The translations under genes were made by a program, and so were the position numbers. The notes under the pieces were generated by a model that saw only the letters and a program-made list of their open reading frames with translations, was not told where the DNA came from and made no database searches. This document shows, in pieces, positions 4,705 through 64,000 of a DNA stretch of 64,000 nt. The stretch is taken from assembly GCA_963736755.1 (NCBI GenBank), contig CAVTQE010000023.1, positions 9,822 through 73,821 on the forward strand, given 5' to 3'. Source of the DNA: an uncultured delta proteobacterium (GTDB taxonomy: Bacteria; Desulfobacterota; WTBG01; JAGOGO01). Positions within the stretch are counted from its first letter, which is position 1. Every line of letters starts with the position of its first letter.

Positions 4705-4723
4705 ATACGGAGCTCAGCAATCG

Positions 4724-5632: not shown

Positions 5633-5676
5633 ATTAAAAGCCTCCTTGTTTTCTTTTTTTACGTTAATGAGCCTTT

Positions 5677-10393: not shown

Positions 10394-10399
10394 CCATCA

Positions 10400-10960
10400 T
10401 CAAAAGTTTAATCTCATCTGCTTTATATAAGGCAGGGATAGCGGAGGACACGCTGGTTGATGATTTTGTGCTTTCCCTGGAAATCGCCCTGCAGGGTTAC
10501 CAAATCCAATATTCGCCGAGAGCCGTTGCCATAGAAACGGGATCGGCAAGCATCAACGAGGAATTCAAGCGGAAGACACGGATTGCCGCCGGTAATCTCC
10601 AGGCCGTCCTGCGCATGCCTGAACTGCTCAATCCATTCCGGCACGGGATGCTCACGTTCCAGTATATTTCCCATAAGTTCCTTCGATCCTTTTTCTCGCC
10701 CCCCTCTGTTTCGCCGCGTTGATCCCTCTCAATATCCTTCTTCTGTCAAAAGGCGGTTTCGTCTCCGTCTTTATGTTAGTTATGCAGGTATTGTTTTACC
10801 TCATAGCGTGGGCAGGATATGTATCCGGGAACGCCGCCTCTCCTCGCGCCTCTTTTGCGTCCCCCTCTATATCGTTGTCATGAACCTCTCAGCCATCGTG
10901 GGTGCCTTCCGGTACCTGGCGGGGAAGCAATCCGTCCTGTGGGAAAAGTCCCTGAGGAAA
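10400..10960 (+). pseudogene. C-terminal half of a family-2 glycosyltransferase (N-terminal catalytic half missing, frameshifted)
   Basis: ...AEDTLVDDFVLSLEIALQGYQIQYSPRAVAIETGSASINEEFKRKTRIAAGNLQ... begins abruptly at the end of the duplicated fragment. The tail ...NLSAIVGAFRYLAGKQSVLWEKS is in another frame. Confidence 0.5.
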
Positions 10961-10994
10961 GAAGAGGGACCAGACAGGGAGGAGATACCGGAGA

Positions 10995-12382: not shown

Positions 12383-12439
12383 ACCGGGCGTCCCGCGCCC
12401 AAAACCTCCCATCATCCCACTTCTGCAAATAACCGGGGT

Positions 12440-12925
12440 TTATTTGCCGGGTGAGACCTGAATTTTTTTTATATATTCACTGCTGGAATGGCCTTTGGGA
12501 TCGCCAACAATGGCAATGCGGGCGTTAAGGGATATAGCGGTGTCACGTTCCGGAACGTTTTCCACGGTATAATCAGTTCCTTTAGCAAATACGTGGGGCC
12601 GGATTTTTCTTAAAATTTCATCAACAGTTGGCTCAGAAAAAAGGGTGAGGTAGTCAACATACACCGAGGAGCAAATAATTTCGAGACGTTCATTTTCCGG
12701 CATGAGGGGACGCCCTTCCTTTTTTGTTTTCCTCACTGACTCATCACTGTTTACCCCAACGACGAGTATATCTCCCTTTTGCTTCGCTCCGCGCAGACAG
12801 CGAATTGCTCCGCGCAGACAGCGCATATGGCCAAAGGTCAAAACATCCGTTGACGAACACTATCTTTTGGCGATTTTTTCTGTGTCCTTCGAAAACCGCT
12901 ATAGGCTTTTCTGGTGAGCAAGAAT
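12440..12925 (-). CDS. hldC: D-glycero-beta-D-manno-heptose 1-phosphate adenylyltransferase (RfaE domain II type), 5' end frame-broken, with 21-bp internal tandem duplication
   Basis: ...GDILVVGVNSDESVRKTKKEGRPLMPENERLEI...VFAKGTDYT...; upstream frame gives KIVFVNGCFD. Adjacent to the heptose kinase gene. Confidence 0.75.
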
Positions 12926-12935
12926 AATCTTCGCT

Positions 12936-14012
12936 TCATTCATCGTATTTTTTCACTGCCTCCAAAAGTTCTTCCCGCGTTAGCACCGCTGTACCGCTTT
13001 TCGTTACTACCACCCCCGCGGCGCAGGTAGCGAGGATAGCGGCGTCATGAAATCCGGCACCTGAAGCTACGGCAAGGGTAAAAACGGCGACCACGGCATC
13101 CCCCGCACCGGTTATGTCAGTGATATCATGGTGCCTTAATATAGGAATATGAGAGAATTTCGCGGGTTTCTCCAAAAGGCTCATCCCTCGATTCCCCCGG
13201 GTAATAAGCACAGCCTTTAATTTTAATTTATCCATCAAGATATGTGCGGCCCGCTCCAGTGCCTGATCATCAAAAAGTCGCTTGCGAACTGCCTTTTCAG
13301 TCTCTGATTCGTTTGGAGTGACCGCAGTTACCCCCCGAAACCGCATTATTTGGTAGCGAGAGTCTGCGATGATGATCTTCTGCTTGGCTAAATTCTGAAT
13401 CAAAGAAATGATCCGATCTGAAACCACTCCGTACCCATGGTCAGAGACGATAATGACATCTATGTCGCGGGATAACTTTTTGAACTGGTCGTAGATTTTT
13501 TCCTGGAGCCGCGCAGGAATTAGTTCCTGGTTAACTTTATCTATCCTGATGACTTGTTGTCTGGAGGTGTGTTCATCTCCCGCCATGATCCTGGTTTTGG
13601 AAACCGTATTAACAATATGAGAGCGAAGGAGCCCGTCAACATCCACCCCGCTCTTCTTTAATTGGTTGAGCATACTATTGCCTGCCTCGTCATTTCCCAG
13701 GATTCCCACCGCGCATACCTTGCCGCCGAAGCTCGCCAGGTTATGCGCGACGTTTCCTGCTCCACCGGGAACAATATCTTCCCCTTCATGACGAATAACC
13801 ACCACCGGGGCCTCACGAGAAAGCTGAAACGGTTTTCCATAGAGGTACACATCAGCAATGTAGTCCCCGATTACCAATACTTTCGGCTGGGGAAATTTTT
13901 TTATAATTTCTTCGAGATATTTTTCTTTGGTTTGTGAAGGCTCTTTTTTTATCCCAAACGGGGGCCTTCCCTGAGCTTTACCTGTACCGTGCCTTTTTTT
14001 TTGATAGATCAT
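12936..14012 (-). CDS. hldA: D-glycero-beta-D-manno-heptose-7-phosphate kinase (RfaE domain I, PfkB family)
   Basis: VLVIGDYIADVYLYGKPFQLSREAPVVV...GGAGNVAHNLASFGG... and C-terminal GAGDAV motif. Confidence 0.85.
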   Translation of the reverse strand: MIYQKKRHGTGKAQGRPPFGIKKEPSQTKEKYLEEIIKKFPQPKVLVIGDYIADVYLYGKPFQLSREAPVVVIRHEGEDIVPGGAGNVAHNLASFGGKVCAVGILGNDEAGNSMLNQLKKSGVDVDGLLRSHIVNTVSKTRIMAGDEHTSRQQVIRIDKVNQELIPARLQEKIYDQFKKLSRDIDVIIVSDHGYGVVSDRIISLIQNLAKQKIIIADSRYQIMRFRGVTAVTPNESETEKAVRKRLFDDQALERAAHILMDKLKLKAVLITRGNRGMSLLEKPAKFSHIPILRHHDITDITGAGDAVVAVFTLAVASGAGFHDAAILATCAAGVVVTKSGTAVLTREELLEAVKKYDE

Positions 14013-15070
14013 AGTCCCTTCCTTGTTTGATCAAGAAATTCTTCACAGGCTTTCACAACCTTCTCTACTGAGAGGTTCCTCATGCAACGATTATCAGTAG
14101 GACAAACCTTGAGCTGACATGGGCTGCATTCTAACTCTTCGCGTAATAGTTTCGTCTTTTCCAAACCATAGTTGGTATACCGGGGATCCGTGGATCCCAT
14201 CATGACTATGACCGGAACATCAAACGCAACCGCAAAGTGCCGGGGGCCGGTATCATTCGTGACTACCAGGGCGGCATCACTGATAATCGCCTTGAGGTAT
14301 TCGAGCGAGATATCTTCTGGGGTAAAAACAAACGGGCGGTTACGCATCAATGATGCAATCCGCAAAGCAATCGCTTCTTCACCTGGACCGGCAATGATGA
14401 TCACCTGCGCACCATATTTTTCAATCAAAAAATCCCCCGCCTGAGCAAAATATTCCGGTGGCCAGAGTTTAGACGGACCAAAACTTCCTCCGGGGACCAG
14501 GATCACCAACGGTTTCTCCTGATCAATTCCCCGGCGTTGGTAAAGCGTGTTCACCGCTTCACGGGTATCGCTCAGAAAGGTAAGCACCGTGCGTTCGGAA
14601 GAGATCGCATAGTGCATCGCGTTGCAAATATTTAGGTACCGTTCGACCATGGGGATGGGGATATTTTTCCCCTTTTCCCGGGGGGGAGGAATTTTGTGGG
14701 TCAACATAAACCCCCGGAGGTTAGTATTGTAGCCAACGCGCATAGGAATTCCTGCTAAGAAAGAAACTGCCGCGGAACTAAACGAATTGGGCAAGATAAG
14801 AGAAAGATCAAAACCCGATTTTTTCAACTTCCGGCTCAACGAAAACTTCTTTTTCCACGGCCGGTGCAAAGACTTTGAATCGTATTCGATAATTTCATCA
14901 TAATAAGGAAGGCCTTCGACAACCTTCCGCACTTGAGGACGCACTAACAGCGCAATATGCGCGTCAGGGTTGTTTTCCCGGATTGCTCGCAATGCGGGTG
15001 TAGCCATAACTACGTCGCCGACCCAACTCGGACAATGAACTAAAATATTATTGTGCTTTTTTCGTGGCAT
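14009..15070 (-). CDS. LPS heptosyltransferase (glycosyltransferase family 9)
   Basis: ILVHCPSWVGDVVMATPALRAIRE...; C-terminal NDTGPRHFAVAF...GSTDP. Start moved to MPRKKHN (15070). Confidence 0.85.
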   Translation of the reverse strand: MPRKKHNNILVHCPSWVGDVVMATPALRAIRENNPDAHIALLVRPQVRKVVEGLPYYDEIIEYDSKSLHRPWKKKFSLSRKLKKSGFDLSLILPNSFSSAAVSFLAGIPMRVGYNTNLRGFMLTHKIPPPREKGKNIPIPMVERYLNICNAMHYAISSERTVLTFLSDTREAVNTLYQRRGIDQEKPLVILVPGGSFGPSKLWPPEYFAQAGDFLIEKYGAQVIIIAGPGEEAIALRIASLMRNRPFVFTPEDISLEYLKAIISDAALVVTNDTGPRHFAVAFDVPVIVMMGSTDPRYTNYGLEKTKLLREELECSPCQLKVCPTDNRCMRNLSVEKVVKACEEFLDQTRKGL

Positions 15071-15371
15071 AACAACATCCCGCGCTGTGCGATGGGGGGT
15101 CGAAACAACCCATCCACCACACACCACCCATCAAACAAAAATGAATGCACCTCACGTGTGATATCCTTGAACGGCAAAGTGGTTTCACCGCTTTTTTTCG
15201 CTCAAAAATAGCAAGGTGCGTAAGACTAATCAGGAGAGGAGTTAATTTAGAAAGGGAACCCTTCCTAACCTTTGTCAACCCAGAGTTTGAGCATTTCGGT
15301 TGGGATAAATAAAAAGGATTCGCATTTGCCCTTTTCACTATAGTATAATTCTTAAAATTAATAATTGTTTT

Positions 15372-15556
15372 GCCATTTACCCCGTTAGAAATGCCCTGCT
15401 TGCCTTGTTAGATATCAAATATTTAACAAGGTAAAGAACCACGGGGTAAACTTTAAAAAAATTTTTACACTTTTTCACACGGGGCATTCATCCCGTTAGA
15501 AAATTTTCTAATGGGATTTACCCTGTGTGAAATCTTTCTAACGGGGTTTCACGTTA
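15372..15556 (+). repeat. CCCCGTTAG-family multi-hairpin repeat element, copy A
   Basis: Colinear with the reverse complement of 20296-20472. Contains palindromes ccttgttagatatcaaatatttaacaagg (15403-15431) and cccgttagaaaattttctaatggg. Confidence 0.75.
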
Positions 15557-15736
15557 ATGAAAAGCCTTTAATCTTTTGCAAGGCTACAATCTTTCTTACC
15601 TTAAATAAAAAAATATATTATTATTACTTAATCAATAAGAAATCAACCATAGAAAAAGAGGATTTTCTTGACTGGGTTGAAAATATTGGCTAAAAAAACA
15701 TTATTATCAATTTGTTAAATTAAAAAAGGCACGCGC

Positions 15737-16552
15737 ATGTCCTCTGAGTACAAACAGCCCCTTATGAGAAACCTTCGGTACTATCTCCGGAAAAGTTGCG
15801 GTAAAGTCTCGATAGAGTGCAATCGGCTCCAAAAACTCTGGAAGCTGGAGGATAAAATTTCTTATCAATTCTCCGACTGGGAACTTTTAAACCAGGCTCT
15901 TACTCATAAATCTTATGCTTATGAGGTTCTCAAAAACAATGGTAAACACTATGAGATGTTAGAATTTCTGGGTGATGCAGTTCTGGATATGGTGATTAGT
16001 CATCTCCTGATGAAAAAGTATCCCGAAGCCACTGAAGGAGAACTCTCGAAAAGCCGTTCTTCTCTGGTTAATACCAAAAGGCTCTCCATCCTCGCCCGTC
16101 AGTTTGGTTTAGGAGAATATATCCTCTTAGGTAAAGGCGAAGATCAAAGCCAGGGCCGTTCCAAACCAACGATCCTTACGTGTGTTTATGAAGCATTAAT
16201 TGGAGCGATTTATTTGGATGGAGGCTTTGATAAGGTCGCCAAAGTAATCCATTCCCATTTTGAACAACTGTTATCCCATAAATTATCAAAAGGAATTTAT
16301 CGGGATTTTAAAAGCCGGCTCCAGGAATATGTGCAAGGCACCCTTAAAACCATTCCTGAATACCATGTGTTGAGTGAATCAGGCCCCCCGCATGCAAAAG
16401 AATTTGCGATCCATATTAAAATAAATGGAAAAGCTTATGGTAGTGGCCGCGGGAAAAGCAAGAAAGAGGCCCAACAGCGTGCGGCCATGGCAACCCTCAA
16501 ACAACTCGGTCTTTCCGCCAAACCCCCTTCTGCTAAAAGACCAAACCCATGA
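15737..16552 (+). CDS. rnc: Ribonuclease III
   Basis: ALTHKSYAYE...YEMLEFLGDAVLD signature, C-terminal dsRBD (EYHVLSESGPPHAKEF...GRGKSKKEAQQRAA). About 35 aa N-terminal extension if ATG 15737 is used. Confidence 0.9.
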   Translation: MSSEYKQPLMRNLRYYLRKSCGKVSIECNRLQKLWKLEDKISYQFSDWELLNQALTHKSYAYEVLKNNGKHYEMLEFLGDAVLDMVISHLLMKKYPEATEGELSKSRSSLVNTKRLSILARQFGLGEYILLGKGEDQSQGRSKPTILTCVYEALIGAIYLDGGFDKVAKVIHSHFEQLLSHKLSKGIYRDFKSRLQEYVQGTLKTIPEYHVLSESGPPHAKEFAIHIKINGKAYGSGRGKSKKEAQQRAAMATLKQLGLSAKPPSAKRPNP

Positions 16553-17875
16553 AAAGTATCATCGCCATTGTGGGCAGGCCCAATGTCGGTAAATCTACCC
16601 TCTTCAACCGCTTAGCCCGGAAGCCAAAGGCAATTATTGACGATCTTCCCGGGGTAACCCGAGACCGCAACTATGCTGAAGTTGAATGGGGTGACTCTTC
16701 TTTCACTCTTATCGATACCGGAGGATTCGAGCTTGAACCCCATCAAGCATTATCCCGCTTGGTCCAGGAACAAGCTCGCTTAGCCATTGAAGAAGCAGAT
16801 ATCATCCTTTTTCTCACTGATGGCCGTGAAGGGCTTACTCCGGTTGACAAAGATTTGATCAGTCTTCTCCGGACGATCCCTAAACCTATCTTCCACTGTA
16901 TCAATAAAATTGATGGCCCCCGCCATGAAGAAAACCTTTACGACTTTTTCCAGATGGGGATTGACCAGTGGTTCACCATCGCGGCTAAGCACAACCGCGG
17001 GGTAAGCGAATTAATGGATGAGGTAATCAAGGCCCTTCCCAAGAAAAAACTCTCATCGGAAGAGGAAAGTGCCATTAAGATCGCGGTGTTGGGTCGTCCC
17101 AACGTTGGAAAATCATCATTAGTCAATCGAATCCTCGGCTATAACCGCGTTATTGTCAGTGAAACTCCCTGGAACGACCCGGGATGCGATTGATACGCCT
17201 TTTAGGTTTAAAGGCAAGCGATACATTATCATTGACACTGCCGGGATCCGGAAAAAAAGCCGGATTGGCTACCAACTCGAAAAGTATTGCGTGGTAGAAG
17301 CATTACGAGCAATTGAACGGTGTGATGTGAGTTTGATCCTGATTGATGCCCAGGAAGGAATCACCGAACAGGATGTAAAAATTGCCGGTCAGGTCTATCA
17401 AAAAGGAAAGGGCTGCGTGGTGGTAGTCAATAAGTGGGACGTGATCCAAAAGGATAACTCCACCATCGGGACCTATGTGGAGAAAATAAAAGACAAAATG
17501 AAATTTCTTGACTTTGTCCCGCTTATCTTTGTCTCTGCCCTCTCCGGCCAGAGGGTGTCAAAAATATTGGATAAGGTTTACGACTGCTTTACGCAATGCC
17601 AAAAAAGGATCGAAACCGCTGAACTAAACCGTTTCCTGGCTCAGGTGATCAATGATCATCCTCCGTCCCACCATTGCGGAAAACAAATCAAATTTAAATA
17701 TCTCGCTCAGGTGGACATAAAGCCGCCCACCTTTGTTTTTTTCACTAATTTTCCCAAAGCCATTCACTTTTCTTACCAACGGTATCTTGCCAATCAGTTG
17801 CGGGAGGCCTACGGTTTTGAAGGCGCTCCGCTTCGGCTCTTTTTCCGGGGAAGGGAAAGAAAAACCACCCCATAA
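16549..17875 (+). CDS. der: Ribosome-associated GTPase Der/EngA (two G domains), one frame break at 17167-17169
   Basis: GRPNVGKST twice, DTGG, C-terminal KH-like domain. Removing one C of CCC 17167-17169 restores SETPGTTRDAIDT. Confidence 0.9.
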
Positions 17876-17985
17876 TATTTGCTTAAACATAGTATCAGAA
17901 AGGCAGGTCGCTTACCCGTCAGTAAAAAGCTGTTAACCACGTGGTCGGCGATTCGAGTCCGTCCCGGGGAGTTAATGATTTCAAA

Positions 17986-20295: not shown

Positions 20296-20472
20296 TTCAA
20301 GTTTTTTCACGGTACCCCAGAAAACCCCGTTAGAAGGCTTTCACACGGAGCATAAACCCCGTGTAAAAAGGCGTAAAAATCTTTAATTGTACCCTGTGCT
20401 TCTTCACCCCGTTAGGTATTTGATATCTAACAGGGCAAGCAGGGCCTTTCAAACGGGGTAAACGCAAAACGA
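20296..20472 (-). repeat. CCCCGTTAG-family multi-hairpin repeat element, copy B (inverted relative to A)
   Basis: Its reverse complement aligns with 15372-15556. Palindrome cttcaccccgttaggtatttgatatctaacaggg at 20402-20435. Confidence 0.75.
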
Positions 20473-22488: not shown

Positions 22489-22572
22489 TAAACCCGGTTA
22501 GAAAATTTTCACCAGGGGCATTTACCCCCTATTTCTTCACCCCGTTAGATATTTGTATCTAACGGGGCTCGT
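22489..22572 (-). repeat. CCCCGTTAG-family repeat element, short copy C
   Basis: Near-perfect palindrome cttcaccccgttagatatttgtatctaacgggg at 22535-22567; same orientation as copy B. Confidence 0.7.
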
Positions 22573-50210: not shown

Positions 50211-50264
50211 ATGGAAAATGCTAATAGGATGTTACGTGGTCTCATTAAGTCATTGAAGAACTAA
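50211..50264 (+). pseudogene. 3' remnant of a four-helix-bundle (23S rRNA IVS protein family) gene
   Basis: MENANRMLRGLIKSLKN* compared with the end of 61842-62201 (...MQDVDRMLSGLIKSLKK*). The nucleotide similarity continues into the following ttcacttttcac words. Confidence 0.7.
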
Positions 50265-50392
50265 CTTTTCACTTTTCACGATTCACTTTTTACGCTTCAC
50301 GCTTTACGGTTTTTTTTAACGTTTAACTTTTCACTTTTACGTTTTACATTTCACGTTTTACTTTTTACTATTTCAAACAGAAGGACTTTGCC
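50265..50392. repeat. Word block (H words, single polarity)
   Basis: cttttcacttttcacgattcactttttacgcttcacgctttacgg...cgtttaacttttcacttttacgttttacatttcacgttttac. Confidence 0.7.
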
Positions 50393-51401: not shown

Positions 51402-51812
51402 GTGGAGGGGATGAAACAACCGATAGTAGTAAAAAGCTTTGAGGACTTATACGTTTATAGCCTATCACGGGCTTTCAGCAAGAAGGTTAGTGAGTTAATA
51501 AAATTGTTGCCACAACATGAAGAATACAACCTGAAAAGCCAGATGCGACGGGCAAAACTTTCAGTTACAAATAATATAGCAGAGGGATATGGAAGATATC
51601 ATTATCAAGAAAATATCCAGTTTTGTAGACAGGCAAGAGGGTCTATTTATGAATTGATAGATGATTTTAATGAATGCGCTGATGAAGGATACCTTGATCA
51701 AAAAATGCTAACCGATTACAAAGAAGCCGGTTATTATTTGTTGAAAGTTTTAAATAAATATATCAGTTCCCTGAAAAAACTAAAGCAAGCAACTAAAGAA
51801 TTAACTCATTGA
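51402..51812 (+). CDS. Four-helix-bundle protein, 23S rRNA intervening-sequence protein / Avd-like family (copy 1)
   Basis: ...QMRRAKLSVTNNIAEGYGRYHYQENIQFCRQARGSIYEL... Probably starts at ATG 51411. Flanked by an inverted repeat (51386-51403 / 51823-51848). Confidence 0.85.
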   Translation: MEGMKQPIVVKSFEDLYVYSLSRAFSKKVSELIKLLPQHEEYNLKSQMRRAKLSVTNNIAEGYGRYHYQENIQFCRQARGSIYELIDDFNECADEGYLDQKMLTDYKEAGYYLLKVLNKYISSLKKLKQATKELTH

Positions 51813-51856
51813 CTCATTATTTACCCATTTACTTATTTACTTATTAACTTATTTCT

Positions 51857-54261: not shown

Positions 54262-55229
54262 ATGATTGACCTTCACGCGCATATCCTTCCTGACCTTGAT
54301 GATGGGGCAAAAGACTGGCAGGAGACCCTTGATATGTGCGCCATTGCCTTGAATGACGGCATCCACACCATCGTGGCCACCCCCCATGTGAAACGAGGAA
54401 TGTACACCCCGGCCAAAAAACTTATCTTATCCAAGGTCGCCGAACTCAACCACCGCCTGCTCCATGCTCCGCTTACGCCTCCCGTCGTGTAAAACGTGAA
54501 ACGTAGAGATGTAACTCCTCACGCTTCACGCCCCGCGCCTCCCCGTCAAACGTAAAAAGTAAAACGTTAGAAGTAACTCCTCACGTTTCACAGTTCACGT
54601 TTCACGGATTAACAATTGTGCCCGGCGCTGACAACGCTTTTGAGCCGGATATCCTCGACCAATTAGAACAGGGAACTGCTTTGTATCTTGCCCACCCCAC
54701 CAACGCTATAAACGCACCAAACGCAATTAACGCGAATAACCCAACTACCCGTGAAATGCGAAGCATATTTCACCGGGACCCCACAAACCCTATAAACCCA
54801 ACCCTCCGCTACGTGCTCCTGGAGTTGTCCGATTATTTTCTTTTTCCTCAGGTGAAAGACCTCATCCGGAAACTCCGCGAAAAAAACATCGTGCCTGTCC
54901 TCAGCCACCCGGAAAGAATTGCCATGATCCAGAAAAATCACCAGCTCCTTCAGGCCTTCATTCAAGCCGGCGCTCTTTCCCAGGTAACCGCGATGAGCAT
55001 CACCGGTGAATTCGGAAAAGAAATTAAAAAACTTACCCGAACCCTGGTAAAGAAAAATCTGGCGCATGTTATCGCCTCTGATTCCCACTCAAAAGACCGC
55101 AGGCCGCCGATACTTTCACAAGCAGTCTCGGAGGTCGCTGACCTTATCGGCAGCGATAAAGCGGAACTGATGGTCCAGGGGATACCCCAGGCGATCATTG
55201 AAGGTAAGGAAATAAGATTAGATGATTAG
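54262..55229 (+). CDS. PHP-family protein-tyrosine phosphatase (CpsB/YwqE type), split by a 137-nt word-hairpin insertion and carrying a second in-frame insertion
   Basis: MIDLHAHILPDLDDG...TPH... (54262-54468), then GLTIVPGADN...SHPER...ASDSHS (54606-55229) in another frame. Confidence 0.8.
54469..54605 (+). repeat. Word-hairpin insertion inside the phosphatase CDS (two tandem units)
   Basis: Stops in all three frames (taa 54490, tga 54497, tag 54504). Contains the core gtcaaacgtaaaaagtaaaacgttagaagtaactcctcacg. Confidence 0.8.
54691..54808 (+). repeat. In-frame low-complexity insertion in the phosphatase CDS
   Basis: ccaccaacgctataaacgcaccaaacgcaattaacgcgaataaccc ... hairpin gtgaaat/atttcac ... 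ccacaaaccctataaacccaaccctcc. Confidence 0.65.
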
Positions 55230-55297
55230 AGGATTGGAAGGTTGGAAGGTTAGGGAATTAGATAATTAGATGGTTAGAAGATTGGATGGTTAGAGGG
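55217..55297. repeat. Word block (G words) overlapping the phosphatase stop
   Basis: gattagatgattagaggattggaaggttggaaggttagggaattagataattagatggttagaagattggatggttagaggg. Confidence 0.7.
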
Positions 55298-55299
55298 AA

Positions 55300-55665
55300 A
55301 TGGGGAAAAATTTTTATAGAGACCTGTTAGTCTGGCAAAAGAGTGTATCCTTGATAAAAGAGGTTTACGCTGAAGCTGACAAATTGCCAAAATCAGAGGA
55401 ATATAATCTGAAGCAGCAACTTAAAAGAGCAGTTGTTTCTGTTTCGTTAAATATTGCTGAAGGGAAAAATCGAAGATCCCCAAAAGATTTTATTAATTTC
55501 CTTAATATCTCAAATGGTTCTTTAGCGGAGACAGAAGCGATTTTATTGATATGCGGGGAACTTGGGTTTTTGCGTATTCCGGAAGATTTACTTTCCCATA
55601 TAGAAGAACTGGCAAAAATGATCAACAGCCTGATTGCCAACATAAGGGGGAAATTAGAAGGTTAG
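55300..55665 (+). CDS. Four-helix-bundle protein, 23S rRNA IVS protein / Avd-like family (copy 2)
   Basis: ...QLKRAVVSVSLNIAEGKNRRSPKDFINFLNISNGSLAETEA... Confidence 0.85.
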   Translation: MGKNFYRDLLVWQKSVSLIKEVYAEADKLPKSEEYNLKQQLKRAVVSVSLNIAEGKNRRSPKDFINFLNISNGSLAETEAILLICGELGFLRIPEDLLSHIEELAKMINSLIANIRGKLEG

Positions 55666-55904
55666 AGGATTAGAGGATTGGAGGGTTAGAAGATTGGAAA
55701 GTTGGATGATTAGAGGGTTAGGAGGAGACTAACTTGCAAACATCCCAACATCTAAACTTCTAATCTTCTATCGCGTCCAAACATCCAAACCTCTAAACCT
55801 CCAACCCTCTGAAGTTGCTAATCCGTCTAAAACTCTAAACATCGGGTCTTTGCCCTTAACCTTAACACTAAAACTTAACACTTAATTACTTAAATCTTAA
55901 CCCA
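55651..55904. repeat. Word-hairpin block: G words, then complementary words, then T words
   Basis: 55651-55728 ttagaaggttagaggattagaggattggagggttagaag... versus 55742-55830 acatcccaacatctaaacttctaatcttc...cctctaaacctccaaccctc; then cttaaccttaacactaaaacttaac. Confidence 0.7.
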
Positions 55905-58119
55905 ATGAACACGATTATTGAGTATGGCCTTATTTTCCTGATTATTTTTACCCCGCTCGCCTTTGGCTCAGTCCATGTCTGGGCATATACCATCGTGGAA
56001 GTTGTTGTCCTTCTTCTTCTTTTGATTTGGCTGTTAAAACATTTTACTTTTCACGATTCACGTTTCACGTCTTCACTTTTCACGTTTCACTTTTCACGCA
56101 TTCACCCGTACTTTCACATTTCACTCTTTACGTTTTACGATCCCCTTTTCCCTCTTCCTGGGCCTGATCCTTTTCCAGATGGTTCCAATACCTGCGACAG
56201 TAATAAAACACCTGTCCCCCAATACCTATGATCTCTACCAGCAAACCATCGGAAATCCGTTAAACGTAAAAAGTAAAACGTTAAATGTTACTACGTCCCT
56301 CGCTGATAGCTCATTGCCGATAGCAAAACCCATGAGCCACGAGCTATCACATTTCACGTCCTATGATCCATTTACACAAACGCCACCAAAACCGAATTTC
56401 TCAAATTCTTTGCCTACTTCTCCGTATTTTTTCTCATCATCACGACCATGACCACCACGCGTCAGATACGACGAATAGTACTGACGATTATTTTCACCGG
56501 AACCGGCGTTGCATTTTTAGCGCTCTGCCAGATACTCAGCAAGTCAGATAAAATCTACGGGTTCTGGCAGTCTCAGCAGGCTCTGCACAAGATCGGAATC
56601 TACGGCGGTCAGATCGGAAAGATCGGAAGCTACGGCGGTCCTTTTATCAATCCCAATCACCTGGCCGGCTACCTGGAGATGGTTATCCCTCTCGCGCTCG
56701 GGTTTTTGCTCAGCCGCGAGGTACCGGGCATCATTCGTTCGGCAAAAAACTGGAAACGACGGCTTTCCCTGCTTGAATCCTGGCTTGCGAAAAATACCCT
56801 CCTTATCTTCATTATCGTCCTGATGGCATCAGCGGTCTTTATTTCTGCCTCGCGGGGCGGGATTATTTCTTTTATTTTTTCTTTAGGGTTATTTTCCCTG
56901 CTGCTCGGAGTGCGAAGATACCACAAGGGAAAAAGAAAGATGGTGCTGCTTATCACCGGATTAATATTCATTTTTCTTCTGTGGATGGGCATTGGCCCGG
57001 TAGTCACCGAACTCGCTACCCTCGCCGATCCCAAGACCTCCGGCTTAGTGGTACGGCTCCAGGTATCGAAAGATACCCTTGCCCTGGCACGGGACTTTCC
57101 CCTCTTCGGGGTCGGGCTGGGTAATTTTCAAACTCTCTATCCTAAATATCAAACATTTATCTACCCCTTCTTCTGGGACCACGCTCATAATGATTACGTG
57201 GAAATGCTCGCCGATACCGGCTGGATGGGGCTGCTCTTATTTTTTGGTGGAATCTGGTTGGTGCTTTTCGCCATCATCAAAACGTGGAAGCAAAGGCGAG
57301 ACCCATTTCTGGCGGACATAACCCTCGGTGGTTTTATCGGCGCAGTGTCTCTTCTGTGCCATTGCCTGGTAGATTTTAACCTCCACATTCCTGCCAATGC
57401 CTTTCTCCTTTTTGTGATCCTGGGACTGATGGTCGCTGCGGTTAATATCAAAAAAAAGGGAGAAGAAGATTTTTCTTTCCTTCCAATCCGCGCCGTTTCT
57501 TTCTCGCCCAAAACAAGAACTGCGCTGATCATGGCAAAAGCCCTCATAATAGTGTTCCTGCTTACCCTGGTGATGAAAGATTATCTGGCGTATCATTTTT
57601 TTAGTAACTACCAATCCCTCAAGCCGAGCGAGTTCTCACTCGCCGCCTCCCTCGTTAAACGTAAAAAGTAAAACGTTAGAAGTAACTCCTCACAGTTCAC
57701 GTTTCACGTTTCACGTTTTACTCACCCGGGCCATCTTTTTTGATTCGGGTAATGCACCGTATCATTATGAGCTGGGTAATTATTATGCCCGCAAGATGAG
57801 CGAATCCTGGAAACGGGGAACCTCGAACATACCAGGAGAACAATGGGTCTTTGACGCTGAAAAAAATGCCCGATTTTTTGGACTTAAGGCTTTACAGGCG
57901 TATGCTGATGCGGTAAACTTGTCTCCGGCCAATGCCTGGTATCATTTTTATCTAGGATGGACCCTGAGCGAATTAAAGCGGTTTTCGGATTTCTCCCAAC
58001 ATCCGATCCCGCTTGCGGAACCTTTTGACGCGGAAACAGAATTTTCCCGGGCCCTCATGCTCGATCCAAACAATGAAAATATTAAAAAATATATAACGGC
58101 CGTAAAACCTGGAGGTTAA
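55905..58119 (+). CDS. O-antigen-ligase-like (Wzy_C) membrane protein with C-terminal TPR-like tail, interrupted three times by word-hairpin insertions
   Basis: ORFs 55905-56231, 56179-56451, 56448-57671 and 57796-58119 are colinear. Core ...FWDHAHNDYVEMLADTGWMG... Confidence 0.75.
56038..56140 (+). repeat. H-word insertion 1 inside the ligase CDS
   Basis: attttacttttcacgattcacgtttcacgtcttcacttttcacgtttcacttttcacgc...; no stop in frames 0 and 1. Host frame changes from 0 to 1. Confidence 0.75.
56254..56366 (+). repeat. Word insertion 2 inside the ligase CDS (core element plus S-complement words)
   Basis: gttaaacgtaaaaagtaaaacgttaaatgttac...gctgatagctcattgccgatagc...catgagccacgagctatcac. Host frame changes from 1 to 0. 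Confidence 0.75.
57654..57725 (+). repeat. Word-hairpin insertion 3 inside the ligase CDS
   Basis: gttaaacgtaaaaagtaaaacgttagaagtaactcctcacagttcacgtttcacgtttcacg; about 90% identical to 54545-54607. Confidence 0.8.
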
Positions 58120-59380: not shown

Positions 59381-59504
59381 AGCACGAGGCGAAAGGAGTA
59401 AAGAGTTAGGTGTTAAATACCGTAAATCGTAAAGGGTAAACAGTAAAAGGTTAAAGGTTAAAAGTAAACAGTAAAAACTAAAGACTGATACCAAAAAGTG
59501 AAAG
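59381..59504. repeat. Word block (cgtaaa/gtaaac words) 5' of four-helix copy 3
   Basis: ccgtaaatcgtaaagggtaaacagtaaaaggttaaaggttaaaagtaaacagtaaaaac...aaaaagtgaaag. Its complement words follow the gene at 59862-59935. Confidence 0.7.
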
Positions 59505-59861
59505 ATGGATTCAAGACAACATAGAAAATTAGACGTCTGGAAAAGGTCAATGGAGTATGTAAGAGAAATTTATAAGCTTACTGAGTCTTTCCCAAAATCA
59601 GAGGCCTATGGCCTGACTTCCCAGATGAGGAGATCATCTATATCTATCCCGAGCAATCTGGCAGAGGGAGCTGCACGCAAAGGTACAAAGGAATTCAGTC
59701 AATTTTTAAATATCGCTCAGGGGTCTATCAGTGAGCTTGACACTCAAATAGAGCTGGCTTTTATGCTGAATTATATTGATAAGCAAAGTTATGAAGATCT
59801 GATGGAAAAGTTAAAAGCAATATCTAAAATGTTGTTCGGCTTGTCAAGGTCACTAAAATGA
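59505..59861 (+). CDS. Four-helix-bundle protein, 23S rRNA IVS protein / Avd-like family (copy 3)
   Basis: ...QMRRSSISIPSNLAEGAARKGTKEFSQFLNIAQGSISELDTQ... Confidence 0.85.
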   Translation: MDSRQHRKLDVWKRSMEYVREIYKLTESFPKSEAYGLTSQMRRSSISIPSNLAEGAARKGTKEFSQFLNIAQGSISELDTQIELAFMLNYIDKQSYEDLMEKLKAISKMLFGLSRSLK

Positions 59862-59935
59862 CAACTGATAAAAGTTAATTTTCACTTTTCACTTTTCACT
59901 TTTTACGCTTAACGACAAAATAAAGGAAAAAGATT
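59862..59935. repeat. Word block (H words) 3' of four-helix copy 3
   Basis: gttaattttcacttttcacttttcactttttacgcttaacg...gattcgaggcacgaag. Confidence 0.7.
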
Positions 59936-60000: not shown

Positions 60001-60546
60001 ATGGATATAGTCAAGCTTGAAAAAGTCGAAAACAAAATCATTGAAATAAGAGGTCAAAAGGTTTTGCTGGATGCTGATGTTGCAGAAATTTACGGTGTTG
60101 AGACGCGAGATATCAATAAAGCCGTGACAAATAATCCGGATAAATTTCCTGAGGAATATGTTGTTGAACTCTCAAAATCTGAAAAAAGAGAACTGGTGGA
60201 AAATTTCCACCGGTTCAATAAGCTAAAGCATTCTACGGTAAATCCTAAAGCATTTCCTGAAAAGGGCTTGTATATGCTTGCTACCATACTCAAAAGCGAA
60301 AAAGCAACTTCGACAACTATCGCTATCATTGAGACTTTTGCCAAGATAAAAAACCTGTCAAACAATATCAAGGAGCTGTCAAAAAGCCGGCATGATAAAC
60401 AAAGGCAAAATCTTCTTCAGAAAAGCGGAGACATTATTTCCGATATACTCTATGACGATTTAGTCACAAATGAAAGTGAGACAAGCTTCGAGATAAACTT
60501 TGCGGTGTTGAAATTCAAGCACACCATCAAAAAAAGTAAAAAATGA
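60001..60546 (+). CDS. ORF6N-domain (KilA-N-related) DNA-binding protein
   Basis: KIIEIRGQKVLLDADVAEIYGVETRDINKAVTNNPDKFPEEYVVELS... Confidence 0.8.
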   Translation: MDIVKLEKVENKIIEIRGQKVLLDADVAEIYGVETRDINKAVTNNPDKFPEEYVVELSKSEKRELVENFHRFNKLKHSTVNPKAFPEKGLYMLATILKSEKATSTTIAIIETFAKIKNLSNNIKELSKSRHDKQRQNLLQKSGDIISDILYDDLVTNESETSFEINFAVLKFKHTIKKSKK

Positions 60547-60612: not shown

Positions 60613-61023
60613 ATGAAACTTACTCGTTTTGAAGACCTCGACTGCTGGCAGGAAGCCAGAAAATTAGTGAAAAGTGTCTATGGAGTAACGAGGGGCGACT
60701 CATTCAAAAAAGACCTTCGGCTCTGCGGACAGATTCAGGCAGCAAGTTCTTCGGTGATGGCAAATATAAGTGAGGGGTTTGTAAGAAGGTCGAACAAAGA
60801 ATTTACTCAATTCTTGTTTATTGCCATGTCATCTTCTGCTGAAGTTCAGAGCCACCTTTATAGCGCCTTAGACCAGGGGTACATCAATCAAGCGCAGTTT
60901 GATGACATTTACAACCAAGCCACGAAAACAGCGAAGATTATATCTGGGCTCATTACTTATTTGAGAAATAACGAGAAACAATATAAACTCAACAAACCAG
61001 AAAAACAGAAGAAACCAAATTAA
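60613..61023 (+). CDS. Four-helix-bundle protein, 23S rRNA IVS protein / Avd-like family (copy 4)
   Basis: ...QIQAASSSVMANISEGFVRRSNKEFTQFLFIAMSSSAEVQS... Confidence 0.85.
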   Translation: MKLTRFEDLDCWQEARKLVKSVYGVTRGDSFKKDLRLCGQIQAASSSVMANISEGFVRRSNKEFTQFLFIAMSSSAEVQSHLYSALDQGYINQAQFDDIYNQATKTAKIISGLITYLRNNEKQYKLNKPEKQKKPN

Positions 61024-61111
61024 CCAAAGAGACTAAAGAAACCAGAGAAACCAGATAAACCAGATAAACCAGATAAACCAGAGAAACCAAATAAACCAGA
61101 GAAACCAAACA
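61022..61111 (+). repeat. 9-nt tandem repeat (aaccagaga/aaccagata), about 10 units, starting at the stop codon of copy 4
   Basis: Eight clean units at 61040-61111 plus two degenerate units. In frame with the ORF they would read KPEKPDKPDKPDKPEKPNKPEKPNK. Confidence 0.85.
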
Positions 61112-61233
61112 AACGTTTCACGTTTTACTTTAACCCTTTATCCTTTTAATTATTCACTCATTCACTTATTTACTTATTTACTTATTAACTTATTAACTCA
61201 TTAACTCATTTACTTTTTAATGTAGTTAAATCT
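61112..61233. repeat. Word block (H, T-complement, L words)
   Basis: acgtttcacgttttactttaaccctttatcc...ttcactcattcacttatttacttatttacttattaacttattaactcattaactcatttac. Confidence 0.7.
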
Positions 61234-61734
61234 ATGGGAAAATCCTGGTTTGTCGTCCACACCAAACCCAGTCAGGAAGAAAACGTGGCCATGCATCTTA
61301 AGCGCAAGGGGATCGAGACCTACCTGCCCAAGATTGAGACCTGCGTTTATAACGGCCTAAAAAAAATTAAAAAGACCAAGTCACTTTTTCCCAATTATCT
61401 TTTTGCCGGGTGCGAAAGAAAAAACATCACTCAGGTCTGCTGGACCAGGGGAGTAAAAAAAGTGCTTTGGGAAAACAACGCTCCCCAGCCCATCAACGAT
61501 GAACTGATTTTCTCACTTAAGTCTTTAACTGGCGATGACGGTTTGATCCGCCCTCCACAATGGGACACGTACCAAAAGCATGATCTGGTTTTGATTACCT
61601 CCGGTCCTTTCAAGGACCTCTACGCCCTCTTTGACCATTGGGAGTCGGATAAGGAGAGGGTCTGTTTACTGCTCAAGCTTTTAAATGCCCAGATCCGGGT
61701 TACTGTGCCAGCGGCTCTCGTGGCAATAGCGTAA
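61234..61734 (+). CDS. NusG-family paralog (RfaH/UpxY-like operon-specific antiterminator)
   Basis: WFVVHTKPSQEENVAMHLKRKGIETYLPKI (NGN domain) and a KOW-like C-terminus (DLVLITSGPFKDLYALF). Confidence 0.8.
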   Translation: MGKSWFVVHTKPSQEENVAMHLKRKGIETYLPKIETCVYNGLKKIKKTKSLFPNYLFAGCERKNITQVCWTRGVKKVLWENNAPQPINDELIFSLKSLTGDDGLIRPPQWDTYQKHDLVLITSGPFKDLYALFDHWESDKERVCLLLKLLNAQIRVTVPAALVAIA

Positions 61735-61841
61735 CGGCGCCATGCGCCGGATATCGTGAATCGTAAGGCGTGAAAAGTGAGGAGCAACATTTAACGTTTT
61801 ACATTTTACGTTTTACGTTTTACGTCTAACGGAGTTTAGGG
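61735..61841. repeat. Word-hairpin block containing an inverted copy of the core element
   Basis: cgtgaatcgtaaggcgtgaaaagtgaggagcaacatttaacgttttacattttacgttttacgttttacg. Confidence 0.7.
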
Positions 61842-62201
61842 ATGTTAAACAAACCTCATAAAAAACTGGATGTATGGAAAAAGGCAATCGATTTGGTGCA
61901 GCAGATATATGATCTGACAAAAACTTTCCCGAAAAATGAAGATTACAGCCTAACCAGCCAAATGAGAAGAGCTGCGATATCAGTACCCTCTAACATAGCG
62001 GAAGGAGCAGCGCGGCAAACCAAAAAAGAATTCATGCAATTTCTTCATATGGCACAAGGTTCGCTGAGCGAATTGGATACACAGATAGAAATAGCAAAAA
62101 GATTAGGATATTTCAGTGAGGATCAAACCAAAAAAATATTCGAGATTATGCAAGATGTTGATAGGATGTTAAGTGGTCTCATTAAGTCATTAAAGAAATA
62201 A
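61842..62201 (+). CDS. Four-helix-bundle protein, 23S rRNA IVS protein / Avd-like family (copy 5)
   Basis: ...QMRRAAISVPSNIAEGAARQTKKEFMQFLHMAQGSLSELDTQ... Confidence 0.85.
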   Translation: MLNKPHKKLDVWKKAIDLVQQIYDLTKTFPKNEDYSLTSQMRRAAISVPSNIAEGAARQTKKEFMQFLHMAQGSLSELDTQIEIAKRLGYFSEDQTKKIFEIMQDVDRMLSGLIKSLKK

Positions 62202-62300
62202 CTTTTCACTTTTCACTTTTCACGTTTTACGTTTTACGGTTTTTAACGCTTTTCACATTTTACTAATTTACTTTTCACTTTTTAACTTATTAACCCTTTT
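62202..62300. repeat. Word block (H and L words)
   Basis: cttttcacttttcacttttcacgttttacgttttacgg...cttttcacattttactaatttacttttcactttttaacttattaaccc. Confidence 0.7.
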
Positions 62301-62399
62301 TTTAACAAATTCATTTACAACTCCTGAAGGTTTTTTACAAACCTGACCGGGCGGAGCCTGCCCCGCGCCTTACAACAAAAGAAAGAAACAAGATTCGAG

Positions 62400-62482
62400 G
62401 CACAAGGAACGAGAATAATCGTAAAAAGTAAACAGTAAAAGGTAAACAGTAAAAACTAAAGACTGATACCAAAAAGTAAAAG
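62400..62482. repeat. Word block 5' of four-helix copy 6 (paralogous to 59441-59504)
   Basis: cgtaaaaagtaaacagtaaaaggtaaacagtaaaaactaaagactgataccaaaaagtaaaag. Confidence 0.75.
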
Positions 62483-62637
62483 ATGGATTCGAGACAACAT
62501 AGAAAATTAGACGTCTGGAAAAGGTCAATGGAGTACGTAAGAGAAATTTATGAGCTTACCGAGTCTTTCCCCAAATCAGAGGTCTATGGTTTGCGCTCGC
62601 AAATGCGTCGAACGGTTGTATCAATACCCAGCAATCT

Positions 62638-62924
62638 TCACCCTGTTAAATAGCTTGAAGTAAGAATGCATTATTATACATATGTCCTACAAAGCATGAA
62701 TGATATGAATTTCTATACAGGGTATACAAAAAACCTCAAACTAAGATTTGAGCACCACAATAAAGGCCTTGTTGAGTCGACAAAAGACAGAAGACCATTC
62801 AAATTGATTTATTATGAAGCATGTCTGAATCAGAATGATGCAATAAAACGAGAAAAGTATTTAAAAACATACCATGGTAAGATGTTTTTGTATAAAAGGC
62901 TCAAATCTTATTTAACCGGGTAAA
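62638..62924 (+). mobile_element. 287-nt insertion carrying a GIY-YIG nuclease ORF, bounded by 12-nt imperfect terminal inverted repeats
   Basis: ccctgttaaata (62641-62652) versus tatttaaccggg (62909-62920), 11/12 complementary. It replaces 4 nt (g gca) of the NLAEG motif. Confidence 0.75.
62666..62923 (+). CDS. Small GIY-YIG nuclease family protein
   Basis: YYTYVLQS...FYTGYTKNLKLRFEHHNKG...FKLIYYEAC...AIKREKYLK (GIY...YIG, conserved Arg and Glu); 85 aa. Confidence 0.9.
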   Translation: MHYYTYVLQSMNDMNFYTGYTKNLKLRFEHHNKGLVESTKDRRPFKLIYYEACLNQNDAIKREKYLKTYHGKMFLYKRLKSYLTG

Positions 62925-63189
62925 GAAGGTTCCGGCAGTACCTCAAAGAAAGAATTTATACAATTTCTTAATATCGCAAGGCGATCAACCTTCGAAAATG
63001 CAAATATGATTATCGTGTTTGAGAAACGGAGTCTAATAATGTGAGTTAAGAGACGAGCTATTGATTAGACCTTGAGCAGGAGTTCGGATGCACACTAATT
63101 TTATAAAAGCTGTTACGGGAAAACTAACCCCTTGCTCCGTGATCACTGACAGCTGGGAAAAGGGCTCATTCCAAGCTCCATGCTCCATG

Positions 63190-63328
63190 CCCCATGCTTT
63201 TTAACGTTTACGTTTCACGTTTTACATTTAACGTTTCACGTTTCACTTTTCACGTTTCACTTTTCACGGTCTTTTCACCTTTCACTTTTCACGGTCTTTT
63301 CACCTTTCACTTTTTTCGGAGCTAACCC
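63190..63328. repeat. Word block (H words, single polarity)
   Basis: aacgtttacgtttcacgttttacatttaacgtttcacgtttcacttttcacgtttcacttttcacggtcttttcacctttcacttttcacgg... Confidence 0.7.
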
Positions 63329-64000
63329 ATGAGTAAAAGAATTTTGGTCACCGGCGGCGCCGGTTTCTTAGGCTCGCATTTGTGCGAAGCTCTTTTAAAA
63401 CAAAAGCACGAGGTCATCTGTATTGACAACTTTTTTACCGGCCGGAGAGCCAATATCGCCCATTCTGGTGCCCAATCCCCTTTTTGAAATTTTAAGACAC
63501 GATATTACTTTTCCCCTGTATGTCGAGGCAGACGAAATCTATAACCTTGCCTGTCCGGCAAGTCCGATCCATTACCAGTTCGACCCGGTGCAGACCACCA
63601 AGACCTCAGTCCATGGCGCTATTAATATGCTCGGCCTCGCCAAACGATTAAAGGTCAAAATCCTTCAGGCCTCAACCTCAGAAGTCTATGGCGACCCCAC
63701 CATTCATCCCCAGCCGGAATCGTACTGGGGAAATGTAAATTCTATTGGCCATCGGTCCTGTTACGACGAAGGGAAGCGGTGCGCTGAAACCCTTTTCTTT
63801 GATTATTACCGCCAGCACAACCTGAAGATAAAAGTTGCCCGCATCTTTAATACCTATGGCCCCCGCATGCTCCCGGATGATGGCCGGGTGGTGAGTAACT
63901 TTATCGTGCAGGCGTTAAAAGGAGAGAATATTACCGTCTATGGCGATGGAAGCCAGACCAGAAGCTTTTGTTATGTTGATGAAATGATCGAAGGACTTAT
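63329..64000 (+). CDS. UDP-glucuronate decarboxylase (UDP-xylose synthase), 3' end beyond the window, frame break near 63470
   Basis: [20 protein letters not shown]...DNFFTGR..., then [35 protein letters not shown]...YDEGKR...[12 protein letters not shown] in the second frame. Confidence 0.85.

Follow-up and report, generated by a model that had tools for sequence, protein, structure and literature searches.

The 64,000-nt stretch of contig CAVTQE010000023.1 from an uncultured delta proteobacterium (the whole of it hereafter called the window) carries at positions 62,639 to 62,924 an insert which we consider quite probably to be one copy of a widespread and very small selfish mobile element. 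As reconstructed here, the element comprises a left arm of 12-16 nt, a leader of 12-40 nt with a ribosome-binding site, a gene of 84-85 codons for a GIY-YIG nuclease of the Slx1/UPF0213 type, and a right arm. Its host in the window belongs to PF05635, a family called “23S rRNA intervening sequence protein” (TIGR02436, four-helix bundle, hereafter 4HB), of which a profile search found six genes in the window, five of them uninterrupted and the sixth, named copy 6, split by the insert. The initial annotation, made from the sequence alone, had described a GIY-YIG mini-element inside the N(I/L)AEG motif of a 4HB gene, and this description holds, with the two host fragments covering PF05635 profile positions 1-46 and 48-85, only one profile position absent between them, and the nuclease gene being the sole open reading frame (ORF) in between. 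The 5′ reading frame of copy 6 enters the element and terminates there at the TAG codon at 62,651-62,653.

The insert measures 286-287 nt, and 3-4 nt of the host gene are missing (GGC or G GCA), the ends being ambiguous by 2-3 nt since host and element ends share TCT / AGA; the 287 nt and four missing nucleotides reported initially fall within this range, but exact values are ambiguous. The identity of copy 6 to its uninterrupted paralogue copy 3, which had been put at about 90%, was an overestimate: it amounts to 85% over the 5′ part, where successive 44-nt windows give 82, 95, 98, 86 and 64% and thus drop toward the junction, and to 56% at the DNA level over the 3′ half, which is 50-59% identical to all five paralogues with copy 3 no closer than the others. 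Because of this fall in identity at the junction and the lack of any preference for copy 3 in the 3′ half, the host gene looks like a chimera with a breakpoint about 45 nt to the left of the element. The 3′ fragment also stops early, at position 85 of the 106 positions of the Pfam profile, and covers only positions 56-89 of our own 123-position 4HB hidden Markov model (HMM); a frameshifted remainder of copy 6 downstream of 63,044 was suggestive by eye and was rejected, as the HMM gives no support for it. With one mismatch in the arms, a chimeric and truncated host gene and uninvaded neighbouring paralogues, the window copy looks old.

The 12-nt terminal inverted repeats described for the insert, complementary at 11 of 12 positions, were confirmed, as was the location of the right repeat within the last codons of the nuclease gene (SYLTG and the stop); when the repeat is extended to 18 nt, 16 positions are complementary (Table 1). 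Within the window, a count of short patterns gives 20 matches against 12 expected, which is not significant alone. What is decisive against chance is that the 79 related ORFs scored elsewhere all have the same arms in the same places. When one genome per species was scanned, 80 loci were obtained, and in all 79 scorable copies, which come from about ten phyla, the left arm (YYYR-CCCTGTTAAATA) precedes the start codon by 12-40 nt and the right arm (TATTTAACAGGG-TRAA) makes up the last four codons and the stop. In the family anatomy the right arm repeats the left in reverse complement and extends 1-2 bases past the stop codon; pairing comprises 12 core positions and partly four more and then ends, so that the unit measures 284-307 nt. 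Although synonymous sites in the ORF are nearly saturated, there is almost no variation in the non-coding left arm or at the synonymous positions of the right arm. Copies of the nuclease gene in unrelated contexts without the repeats had been named initially as an observation that would refute the reading; such contexts do occur, but every copy found in them keeps the repeats.

The arms also change together. In the main clade (CCCTGTTAAATA/TATTTAACAGGG) 91% of pair cells are paired versus about 40% when the partner columns are slid, with one pair showing eight double changes. When 26 distinct arm types are aligned, both sides have changed in 11 of the 16 pairs, a count biased toward pairing as the extra arms were located by seeking inverted repeats at homologous positions, and none of 500 shuffles reaches any of the observed measures. 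Examples of such arms are CCCCGTTAGATA/TATCTAACGGGG at locus L085, with an ORF 62% identical to that of the window, ACCCCGCCCCTCC/GGAGGGGCGGGGT at L186, with an ORF only 44% identical, CCCCGTGAGATA/TATCTCACGGGG at L168 and TCCCGTTAGAGAAA/TTTCTCTAACGGGA at L093. The complementarity could serve a stem in the RNA, a hairpin in the DNA or a protein dimer that reads both ends.

The element moves as a block between genomes and between genes. The loci L026 and L027 are syntenic, with flanks 74-89% identical over several hundred bases on each side, and their elements are 100% identical over 285 nt. As regards co-conversion of flanking sequence, this tract of identity ends no more than 13 nt (left) and 5 nt (right) from the 12-nt arm cores, and the putative breakpoint in copy 6 has been placed above at about 45 nt. 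The window element itself is 89% identical to an element in an Aminicenantes metagenome-assembled genome (MAG), where the flanks show 41-60% identity. When the host protein of L026 was reconstructed and used as a query, intact homologues with 97% and 94% identity were retrieved, and L204 is syntenic with L026, the upstream gene being 96% and the gene halves 91% and 97% identical. The empty L204 allele is GGAGCGAAT TA-TCGTG-AGGCC and the filled L026 allele is TA-[CTTGCCCTG...CAGGGTAAA]-AGGCC, the element replacing 5 nt of the L204 site. L027 is farther from L026 than L204 is and yet agrees with it fully in element and junctions. This is most simply read as the element, together with its junction, having been copied from a filled gene into a homologous empty one in a homing-like manner. 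An empty allele was also sought for the L082 host, the best intact homologue of which is only 79% identical. Elements from 4HB type A, 4HB type B and PDDEXK_3 hosts intermix by ORF similarity, which rules out host-specialised lineages and indicates that switches between host gene families have happened repeatedly.

In the sub-family with the leader GCTTGAGG nearly all copies are located inside a small gene and are co-oriented with it. Seventeen copies interrupt 4HB genes of type A after the ...S-N of N-I-A-E-G and seven interrupt those of type B after G-A-N-(Y), while two more are in 4HB genes after G-R-F-H-Y; PDDEXK_3 (GxxExxY) genes host five copies inside the Tyr codon of G-F-L-E-x-V-Y and two at other sites, and a single copy (L067) interrupts an ORF6N gene directly after QVNI. 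When the 4HB breakpoints are placed on our own HMM, the N-fragments of about 19 loci end at positions 53-55, the C-fragments begin at 56-57, and the C-terminal halves reach 116-122 of 123. The 4HB hosts are widely divergent from each other and yet interrupted at the same codon. The proposal that a conserved motif of a multi-copy family is hit in a homing-like fashion is consistent with the shared sites in the 17 type A and seven type B genes and with the fixed PDDEXK_3 sites, and the search for 4HB genes with and without the insert at the same codon, suggested along with it, finds that codon filled in many genes and a syntenic empty allele for one. The insertion had further been called precise, which applies to the codon, fixed across 4HB genes, but not fully to the junctions, as 0-7 nt are lost there. 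The uninterrupted target sequences are GGAGCGAATTATCGTGAGGCC (L204), AGCAATATTGCAGAAGGT and GCTGTTTACCAGGAGGCG.

The PDDEXK_3 sites are exact (between RTTTA and Y) and the insertion is scarless: in silico removal of CCCTG...CAGGGTRAA restores PDDEXK_3 profile positions 1-116 of 117 in L063, L022 and L008. Removal of a similar block in L011 restores the full 4HB profile (1-106 of 106). No target-site duplication was found at any locus, and neither a single consensus target nor a TA duplication could be retained, as several boundary definitions were tried and no one rule could be derived for the 4HB sites. The outer four nucleotides of the element track the host class: they read CYYG where the host is a 4HB gene and TTTA where it is a PDDEXK_3 gene, the latter coinciding with the host GTT-TAY, and this pattern points to short homology at the junction rather than to a precisely cutting transposase. 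In an AT-rich sub-family from Patescibacteria the position is mostly directly upstream of a start codon or close to the 5′ end of a gene that by eye appears to be AbrB-like. None of the 20 loci tested lies in an rRNA gene, which rules out for these the location known for insertions in the candidate phyla radiation (CPR).

The nuclease ORF of the window contains both the YTYVL and the FYTGYT motifs and all the catalytic positions (Y6, Y17, R27, H31 and E63); Y6, Y17, R27, E29, H31 and E63 are invariant across 34 aligned sequences. In a profile search of PDB the closest structures are the UPF0213 proteins 1zg2 (BH0048, E = 4e-8) and 1ywl (EF2693, E = 1e-6), followed by a weak match to SLX1 (7cq2, E 0.33, with no stretch passing alone), and neither I-TevI nor UvrC was matched. 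The protein ends 22 residues past E63, and in the window sequence, judged by eye and not as an aligned position, the short C-terminal tail after the catalytic Glu has no Asn. Pfam and PDB profile searches revealed no domain outside the 85-aa catalytic core and no separate DNA-binding domain. The ORF is under purifying selection, the ratio of nonsynonymous to synonymous divergence (dN/dS) being about 0.11-0.17 at a median proportion of synonymous differences (pS) of 0.82, with synonymous sites near saturation. Only about 28 nt of the element are non-coding, and the leader leaves no space for a promoter. Since the stop that closes the host frame (TAG or, in a different frame, TAA) lies within the left arm, with a Shine-Dalgarno-like GAGG and the start codon no more than about 15 nt further on, translation of the nuclease is likely to be coupled to the host gene.

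Three palindromes of the window, at about 15.4, 20.4 and 22.5 kb, consist of the left arm, a loop of 4-5 nt and the right arm, and have the asymmetric outer ends of full elements (CTTG...TAAA / TTCA...CAAG). They share arm sequence and the flanking TTCAC / GGTAAAGAA with the copy 6 element, and their arms differ from those of copy 6 at two compensated positions (GTTAGATA / TATCTAAC). The L085 contig contains such a hairpin plus its GIY-YIG ORF with exactly the same arms. Because of the shared asymmetric ends and the cognate ORF of L085, the ORF-less hairpins are best classified as derivatives of this element family, and by their arms the three in the window are assigned to an L085-type sister lineage and not to copy 6. 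The derivatives resembling MITEs (miniature inverted-repeat transposable elements) that the initial annotation proposed do exist, both in the window and widely elsewhere, but those of the window were attributed to the wrong lineage. An exact-pattern scan for CCCCGTTAGATA-N3-6-TATCTAACGGGG found at least 120 metagenome stretches, and among the matches listed 51 hairpins end in CYYG...TRAA, their flanks falling into 40 different contexts; mini-elements are found no more than 3 kb from the nuclease gene in 7 of 80 loci. Arm pairs seem able to spread alone, from which it can be argued that the arms are cis-acting sites.

The hairpins at 15,380-15,546, 20,325-20,470 and 22,493-22,571 sit in larger nested palindromic composites with further CCCCGTTAGAAA-type half-sites, and the same composite (outer TTTACCCCGTTAGA ... 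CGGGGTAAA around an inner hairpin) recurs in the metagenome contigs L084, L126 and L131, which suggests that hairpins insert into one another. Degenerate element copies are arranged head to tail in L046 (5998-6248), where a right arm is directly followed by the next left arm, and in L050 (300-640) the flanks of an element form a long perfect palindrome of which the element is the exact centre.

More than 5,400 relatives of the ORF were found at E <= 1e-5 among protein clusters at 90% identity, the best 120 of these being 78-93% identical. The carriers among the 80 loci include Aminicenantes, Desulfobacterota, Thermotogota, many Patescibacteria, Planctomycetota (Scalindua), Gammaproteobacteria, Bacteroidota, Ignavibacteriota, Nitrospirota, Cloacimonadota and others, and one locus is from a Bathyarchaeia MAG. 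Eight proteins of 128-145 aa in public collections (P0001, P0002, P0008, P0033, P0055, P0060, P0082 and P0088) look like fusions of PF05635 or PF13366 with PF01541. A real fusion of nuclease and 4HB protein was rejected for P0001 and P0002, the two of the eight that were checked, where the contig DNA has TAG at the place of Q in the called protein, making them gene-calling artefacts, which still show the in-frame arrangement of host fragment and nuclease. The element misleads gene callers, leaving fused 144-aa “proteins” in databases that are read through the TAG stop. It appears to be undescribed, as the searchable literature gave no account of it, although absence there is no proof of novelty.

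As to how such an element might move, the nuclease would make the DNA break that starts the movement, and the break would be repaired by copying the filled copy via the flanking homology of related genes, a homing-like process between homologous genes that would account for identical junction scars accompanying the element. Less often, illegitimate events that use a few bases of homology may open new host families. The arms would act in cis, probably being recognised through a hairpin or stem that they form, which would explain the spread of arm pairs alone, and the nuclease would be expressed by riding on the transcript and translation of the host gene. Slx1 enzymes cut branched and hairpin DNA, and since the nearest solved relatives of this nuclease are UPF0213 proteins and, weakly, SLX1, recognition of the arms as a structure by the nuclease is plausible. 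The interpretation offered initially, that of an inserted mini-element, homing-like and with hairpin derivatives, is supported, with cleavage of the target by the nuclease being predicted.

Several observations fit this reading of a homing-like selfish element less well. Both host halves are intact in about 19 loci, which could mean either a recent arrival or an interrupted gene that is still used. The junctions at the N-I-A-E-G sites, with their varying losses, are heterogeneous, and simple excision does not restore the frame. All five neighbouring paralogues, with intact N(I/L)(A/S)EG sites within 11 kb of the window copy, are uninvaded; no relatives of the nuclease were found in the phage contigs and plasmids searched; and element copies sharing one MAG are only about 81% identical, a value which also rules out recent intragenomic bursts. 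An 85-aa GIY-YIG protein that lacks a DNA-binding domain does not easily explain the reading of a 10-15-bp target. Moreover, classical homing elements neither have nor need terminal inverted repeats, unlike this element, and classical transposons make target duplications, none of which is seen here.

In one rival explanation the hairpin would be the primary mobile unit, that is, a palindrome like the repetitive extragenic palindromic (REP) sequences moved by some other enzyme of the host or of a transposon, with the GIY-YIG gene as a passenger that once landed in its loop. The ORF-less hairpins, with at least 120 metagenome stretches, appear far commoner than ORF-bearing copies, they nest in each other, as in the composite palindromes of the window, and in L050 a full element occupies the centre of a long palindrome. 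We nevertheless consider this unlikely, as ORF and arms stay together across ORFs only 43-62% identical to that of the window and the synonymous codons chosen at the 3′ end of the ORF change in step with the arms, both of which argue for long co-inheritance as one unit; besides, every copy has its right arm within the coding sequence, and no other candidate enzyme recurs beside the loci. Little probability is likewise given to a cellular Slx1-like nuclease with a housekeeping or defence role, whose stem would be regulatory or serve RNA processing and which would be shuffled passively among repeated small genes. Such a view agrees with the strong purifying selection, with the predicted RNA fold, which pairs the two ends of the element (z = -1.9), and with the opinion that prokaryotic Slx1-like proteins are vertically inherited repair enzymes (PMC1564403). 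It is difficult to reconcile with genes interrupted at fixed codons, with a 100% identical element in clearly diverged flanks (L026/L027), with an element 89% identical between phyla in flanks of only 41-60%, with the empty/filled polymorphism or with the ORF-less derivatives in 40 unrelated contexts among the matches listed.

An arrangement like that of an intron or an intervening sequence (IVS), in which the terminal stem joins the host halves at the level of the transcript, with removal or bypassing of the insert and a host gene that remains functional, would account for intact host halves at about 19 loci despite saturated synonymous sites between element copies, and for a stem abutting both junctions; ORF-bearing, stem-bounded IVSs are known in 23S rRNA, and in CPR bacteria some non-intron insertions in rRNA genes contain GIY-YIG ORFs (PMC11270868). 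It is, however, very unlikely here, given that about 28 non-coding nucleotides are too few for a ribozyme, that removal leaves the 4HB reading frame broken with 3-7 nt missing, that the host gene in the window has decayed and that none of the tested loci is in an rRNA gene. Rfam gave no match in the window and none at E up to 5 in the region 62,300-63,350, by which group I and II introns and ribozymes were ruled out; an intein was ruled out by the frames and stops, there being a stop between host and ORF and a C-fragment in the +1 frame. A chance juxtaposition of an ordinary small ORF with two unrelated 4HB pseudogene pieces and a fortuitous inverted repeat, which the short-pattern count of the window alone would permit, is extremely improbable and already refuted by the results for the arms in all 79 relatives, for the insertion codon shared by about 25 different 4HB genes and for the empty allele.

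With the homing-like selfish element preferred over these explanations, it is best regarded as a homing-type nuclease gene with transposon-like ends, with a substantial chance of belonging to a distinct class of minimal mobile element. A more specific proposal is put forward tentatively, its probability being judged somewhat below even: that this is an unrecognised class of autonomous prokaryotic element of about 285 bp, in which a minimal, probably structure-specific Slx1-like GIY-YIG nuclease, the sole protein, acts on the hairpin or panhandle made by the complementary ends of the element, and that in many phyla the element homes into small multi-copy genes at conserved codons and seeds REP-like hairpins of about 36-40 bp. 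This would amount to a second, independent system resembling that of REPINs (REP doublets forming hairpins) and RAYTs (REP-associated tyrosine transposases). At about 285 bp it would be, to our knowledge, the smallest autonomous prokaryotic mobile element.

The coordinates of the features in the window are collected in Table 1.

Table 1 Features of the inserted element, its host gene, the related hairpins and the neighbouring repeats in the window
Feature	Position	Strand	Details
5′ fragment of 4HB copy 6	62483..62638	+	ends ...SIPSNL; PF05635 profile positions 1-46, E = 1.9e-16
Whole inserted element	62639..62924	+	286 nt; from alignment to copy 3, family-wide boundary, L026/L027 tract, and empty vs filled allele
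Left arm	62635..62652	+	core CCCTGTTAAATA at 62641-62652; contains the in-frame TAG ending the host fragment
Leader	62653..62665	+	Shine-Dalgarno-like GAAG 5-8 nt before ATG; family consensus GCTTGAGG
GIY-YIG nuclease ORF	62666..62923	+	85 aa, Slx1/UPF0213 type; PF01541, E = 2.2e-15, profile positions 2-74 of 78
Right arm	62909..62926	+	core TATTTAACCGGG at 62909-62920; overlaps codons S-Y-L-T-G, the stop and 1-3 nt beyond
3′ fragment of 4HB copy 6	62925..63044	+, +1 frame	EGSGSTSKKEF...; PF05635 profile positions 48-85 (62925-63041), E = 3.7e-7
Copy 3 (NLAEG)	59505..59861	+	uninterrupted paralogue; nearest available empty site for the left junction
Uninterrupted 4HB genes	51402-51812; 55300-55665; 59505-59861; 60613-61023; 61842-62201		
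ORF-less hairpin	15399..15435	.	CTTG-CCTTGTTAGATA-tcaaa-TATTTAACAAGG-TAAA; DNA fold z = -3.4
ORF-less hairpin	20403..20439	.	opposite orientation; TTCA-CCCCGTTAGGTA-tttga-TATCTAACAGGG-CAAG
ORF-less hairpin	22536..22571	.	TTCA-CCCCGTTAGATA-tttg-TATCTAACGGGG-CTCG; perfect 12-bp stem; z = -7.8
Tandem arrays (first part)	50264-50375, 51817-51854, 55216-55294, 55653-55726, 56042-56105, 59429-59482, 59879-59903		
Tandem arrays (second part)	60973-61114, 61145-61220, 61787-61825, 62201-62288, 62421-62460, 63200-63314		

Most of the six 4HB genes of the window have tandem arrays of short period (7-9 nt) nearby. At copies 3 and 6 the upstream units (GTAAAAA type) are reverse complements of the downstream units (TTTTCAC type), by which the flanks could pair, and similar arrays accompany 4HB genes at the loci L081 and L082 and stand on either side of many hairpins without an ORF in metagenome loci. 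An ORF6N-domain gene and a NusG-like gene, the latter a specialised paralogue (60,001-60,546 and 61,234-61,734), are interleaved with the 4HB genes, and all of these are located inside an apparent polysaccharide-biosynthesis locus. The gene 3′ of copy 6 (63,329-64,000) resembles by eye a UDP-glucuronate decarboxylase or NAD-dependent epimerase with an N-terminal GGAGFLG NAD-binding motif and is apparently frameshifted near 63,470-63,490, as the ORF ends at 63,487 and the homologous reading goes on in another frame. A polysaccharide/exosortase locus is also present in L083 (contig_77261, 1-17963), which is dense with small accessory genes, namely a PDDEXK_3 gene, three NTP_transf_2 genes (two of them paired with HepT-like genes), an AAA_14/DUF4143 gene and an element-bearing 4HB gene; polysaccharide loci seem to collect such small genes. 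In L017 (800-1554) a GIY-YIG ORF 51% identical to that of the window has complementary arms of its own (CCCCGTCGGAGATA / TATCTCCATCGGGG) and no stop codon and runs in frame into a protein resembling by eye a type IV pilin, the junction lying between G and FTIVELL and resembling a prepilin cleavage site, with TTTA repeated at both junctions. This insertion might be harmless if prepilin peptidase released the mature pilin.

The significance of the element is considerably wider than a single window suggests. If the reading is correct, a bare 85-residue nuclease and two arms of 12-16 nt suffice for a horizontally mobile parasite in at least ten phyla, and the view of the prokaryotic Slx1-like GIY-YIG branch as purely housekeeping would be overturned. 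There would also be a source for one abundant class of short palindromic repeats of uncultured bacteria and a handle on the enigmatic 4HB (“23S rRNA IVS protein”) and GxxExxY families, both of them apparent preferred landing pads, and such a very small module of site-directed nuclease and insertion would be of interest as a tool.

Among the known systems, the element works most like a free-standing homing endonuclease gene, though it fails two expectations, the DNA-binding domain being absent and inverted repeats being present. With the free-standing GIY-YIG homing endonuclease genes (phage T4 Seg; I-TevI/I-BmoI) it shares the GIY-YIG domain, the use of the same site in homologous genes, a conserved coding target, presence/absence polymorphism, a break of identity at the borders and junctions which travel with the element. 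These homing endonucleases, however, have at least 200 aa, including a DNA-binding domain of their own that reads a long recognition site, and are members of the UvrC-related lineage, whereas this enzyme is a bare 85-aa Slx1-like domain; their genes have neither terminal inverted repeats nor ORF-less hairpins, and, unlike them, this element uses several unrelated target gene families as well as intergenic sites.

The REP/REPIN-RAYT system is similar in that one small nuclease-type gene is bracketed by inverted palindrome-forming repeats which are also dispersed as short hairpins. RAYTs are homologues of HUH/Y1 transposases, usually single-copy, vertically inherited and not interrupting genes, in contrast to the GIY-YIG enzyme described here, which has its right repeat inside the coding sequence and belongs to a horizontally mobile, site-specific element. 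Bacterial insertion sequences with MITEs likewise possess terminal inverted repeats and internally deleted copies keeping both ends, here including the asymmetric outer four nucleotides. Unlike them, this element encodes no DDE, HUH or serine/tyrosine transposase, its sole ORF being that of the GIY-YIG nuclease, makes no target-site duplication and measures about 285 bp, the smallest autonomous insertion sequences being of about 600-700 bp.

With the ORF-bearing IVSs of rRNA genes it has in common a small ORF enclosed by a terminal stem, and the host family PF05635 was first found inside such IVSs, but this element is located in protein-coding genes and intergenic DNA, with 0 of 20 tested loci in rRNA, whereas such IVSs are situated in an rRNA helix and are cut out by RNase III. 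The GIY-YIG ORFs reported in non-intron insertions of CPR rRNA genes are without the anatomy described here (PMC11270868). The stand-alone Slx1-like proteins of UPF0213 (BH0048, 1zg2; EF2693, 1ywl) have the same minimal domain and are the closest structures by sequence. A survey of GIY-YIG proteins from 2006 placed all the selfish members in the UvrC-related lineage and regarded the prokaryotic Slx1-like proteins as vertically inherited repair enzymes (PMC1564403), a picture which is contradicted by this clade, as it behaves as a selfish mobile gene.

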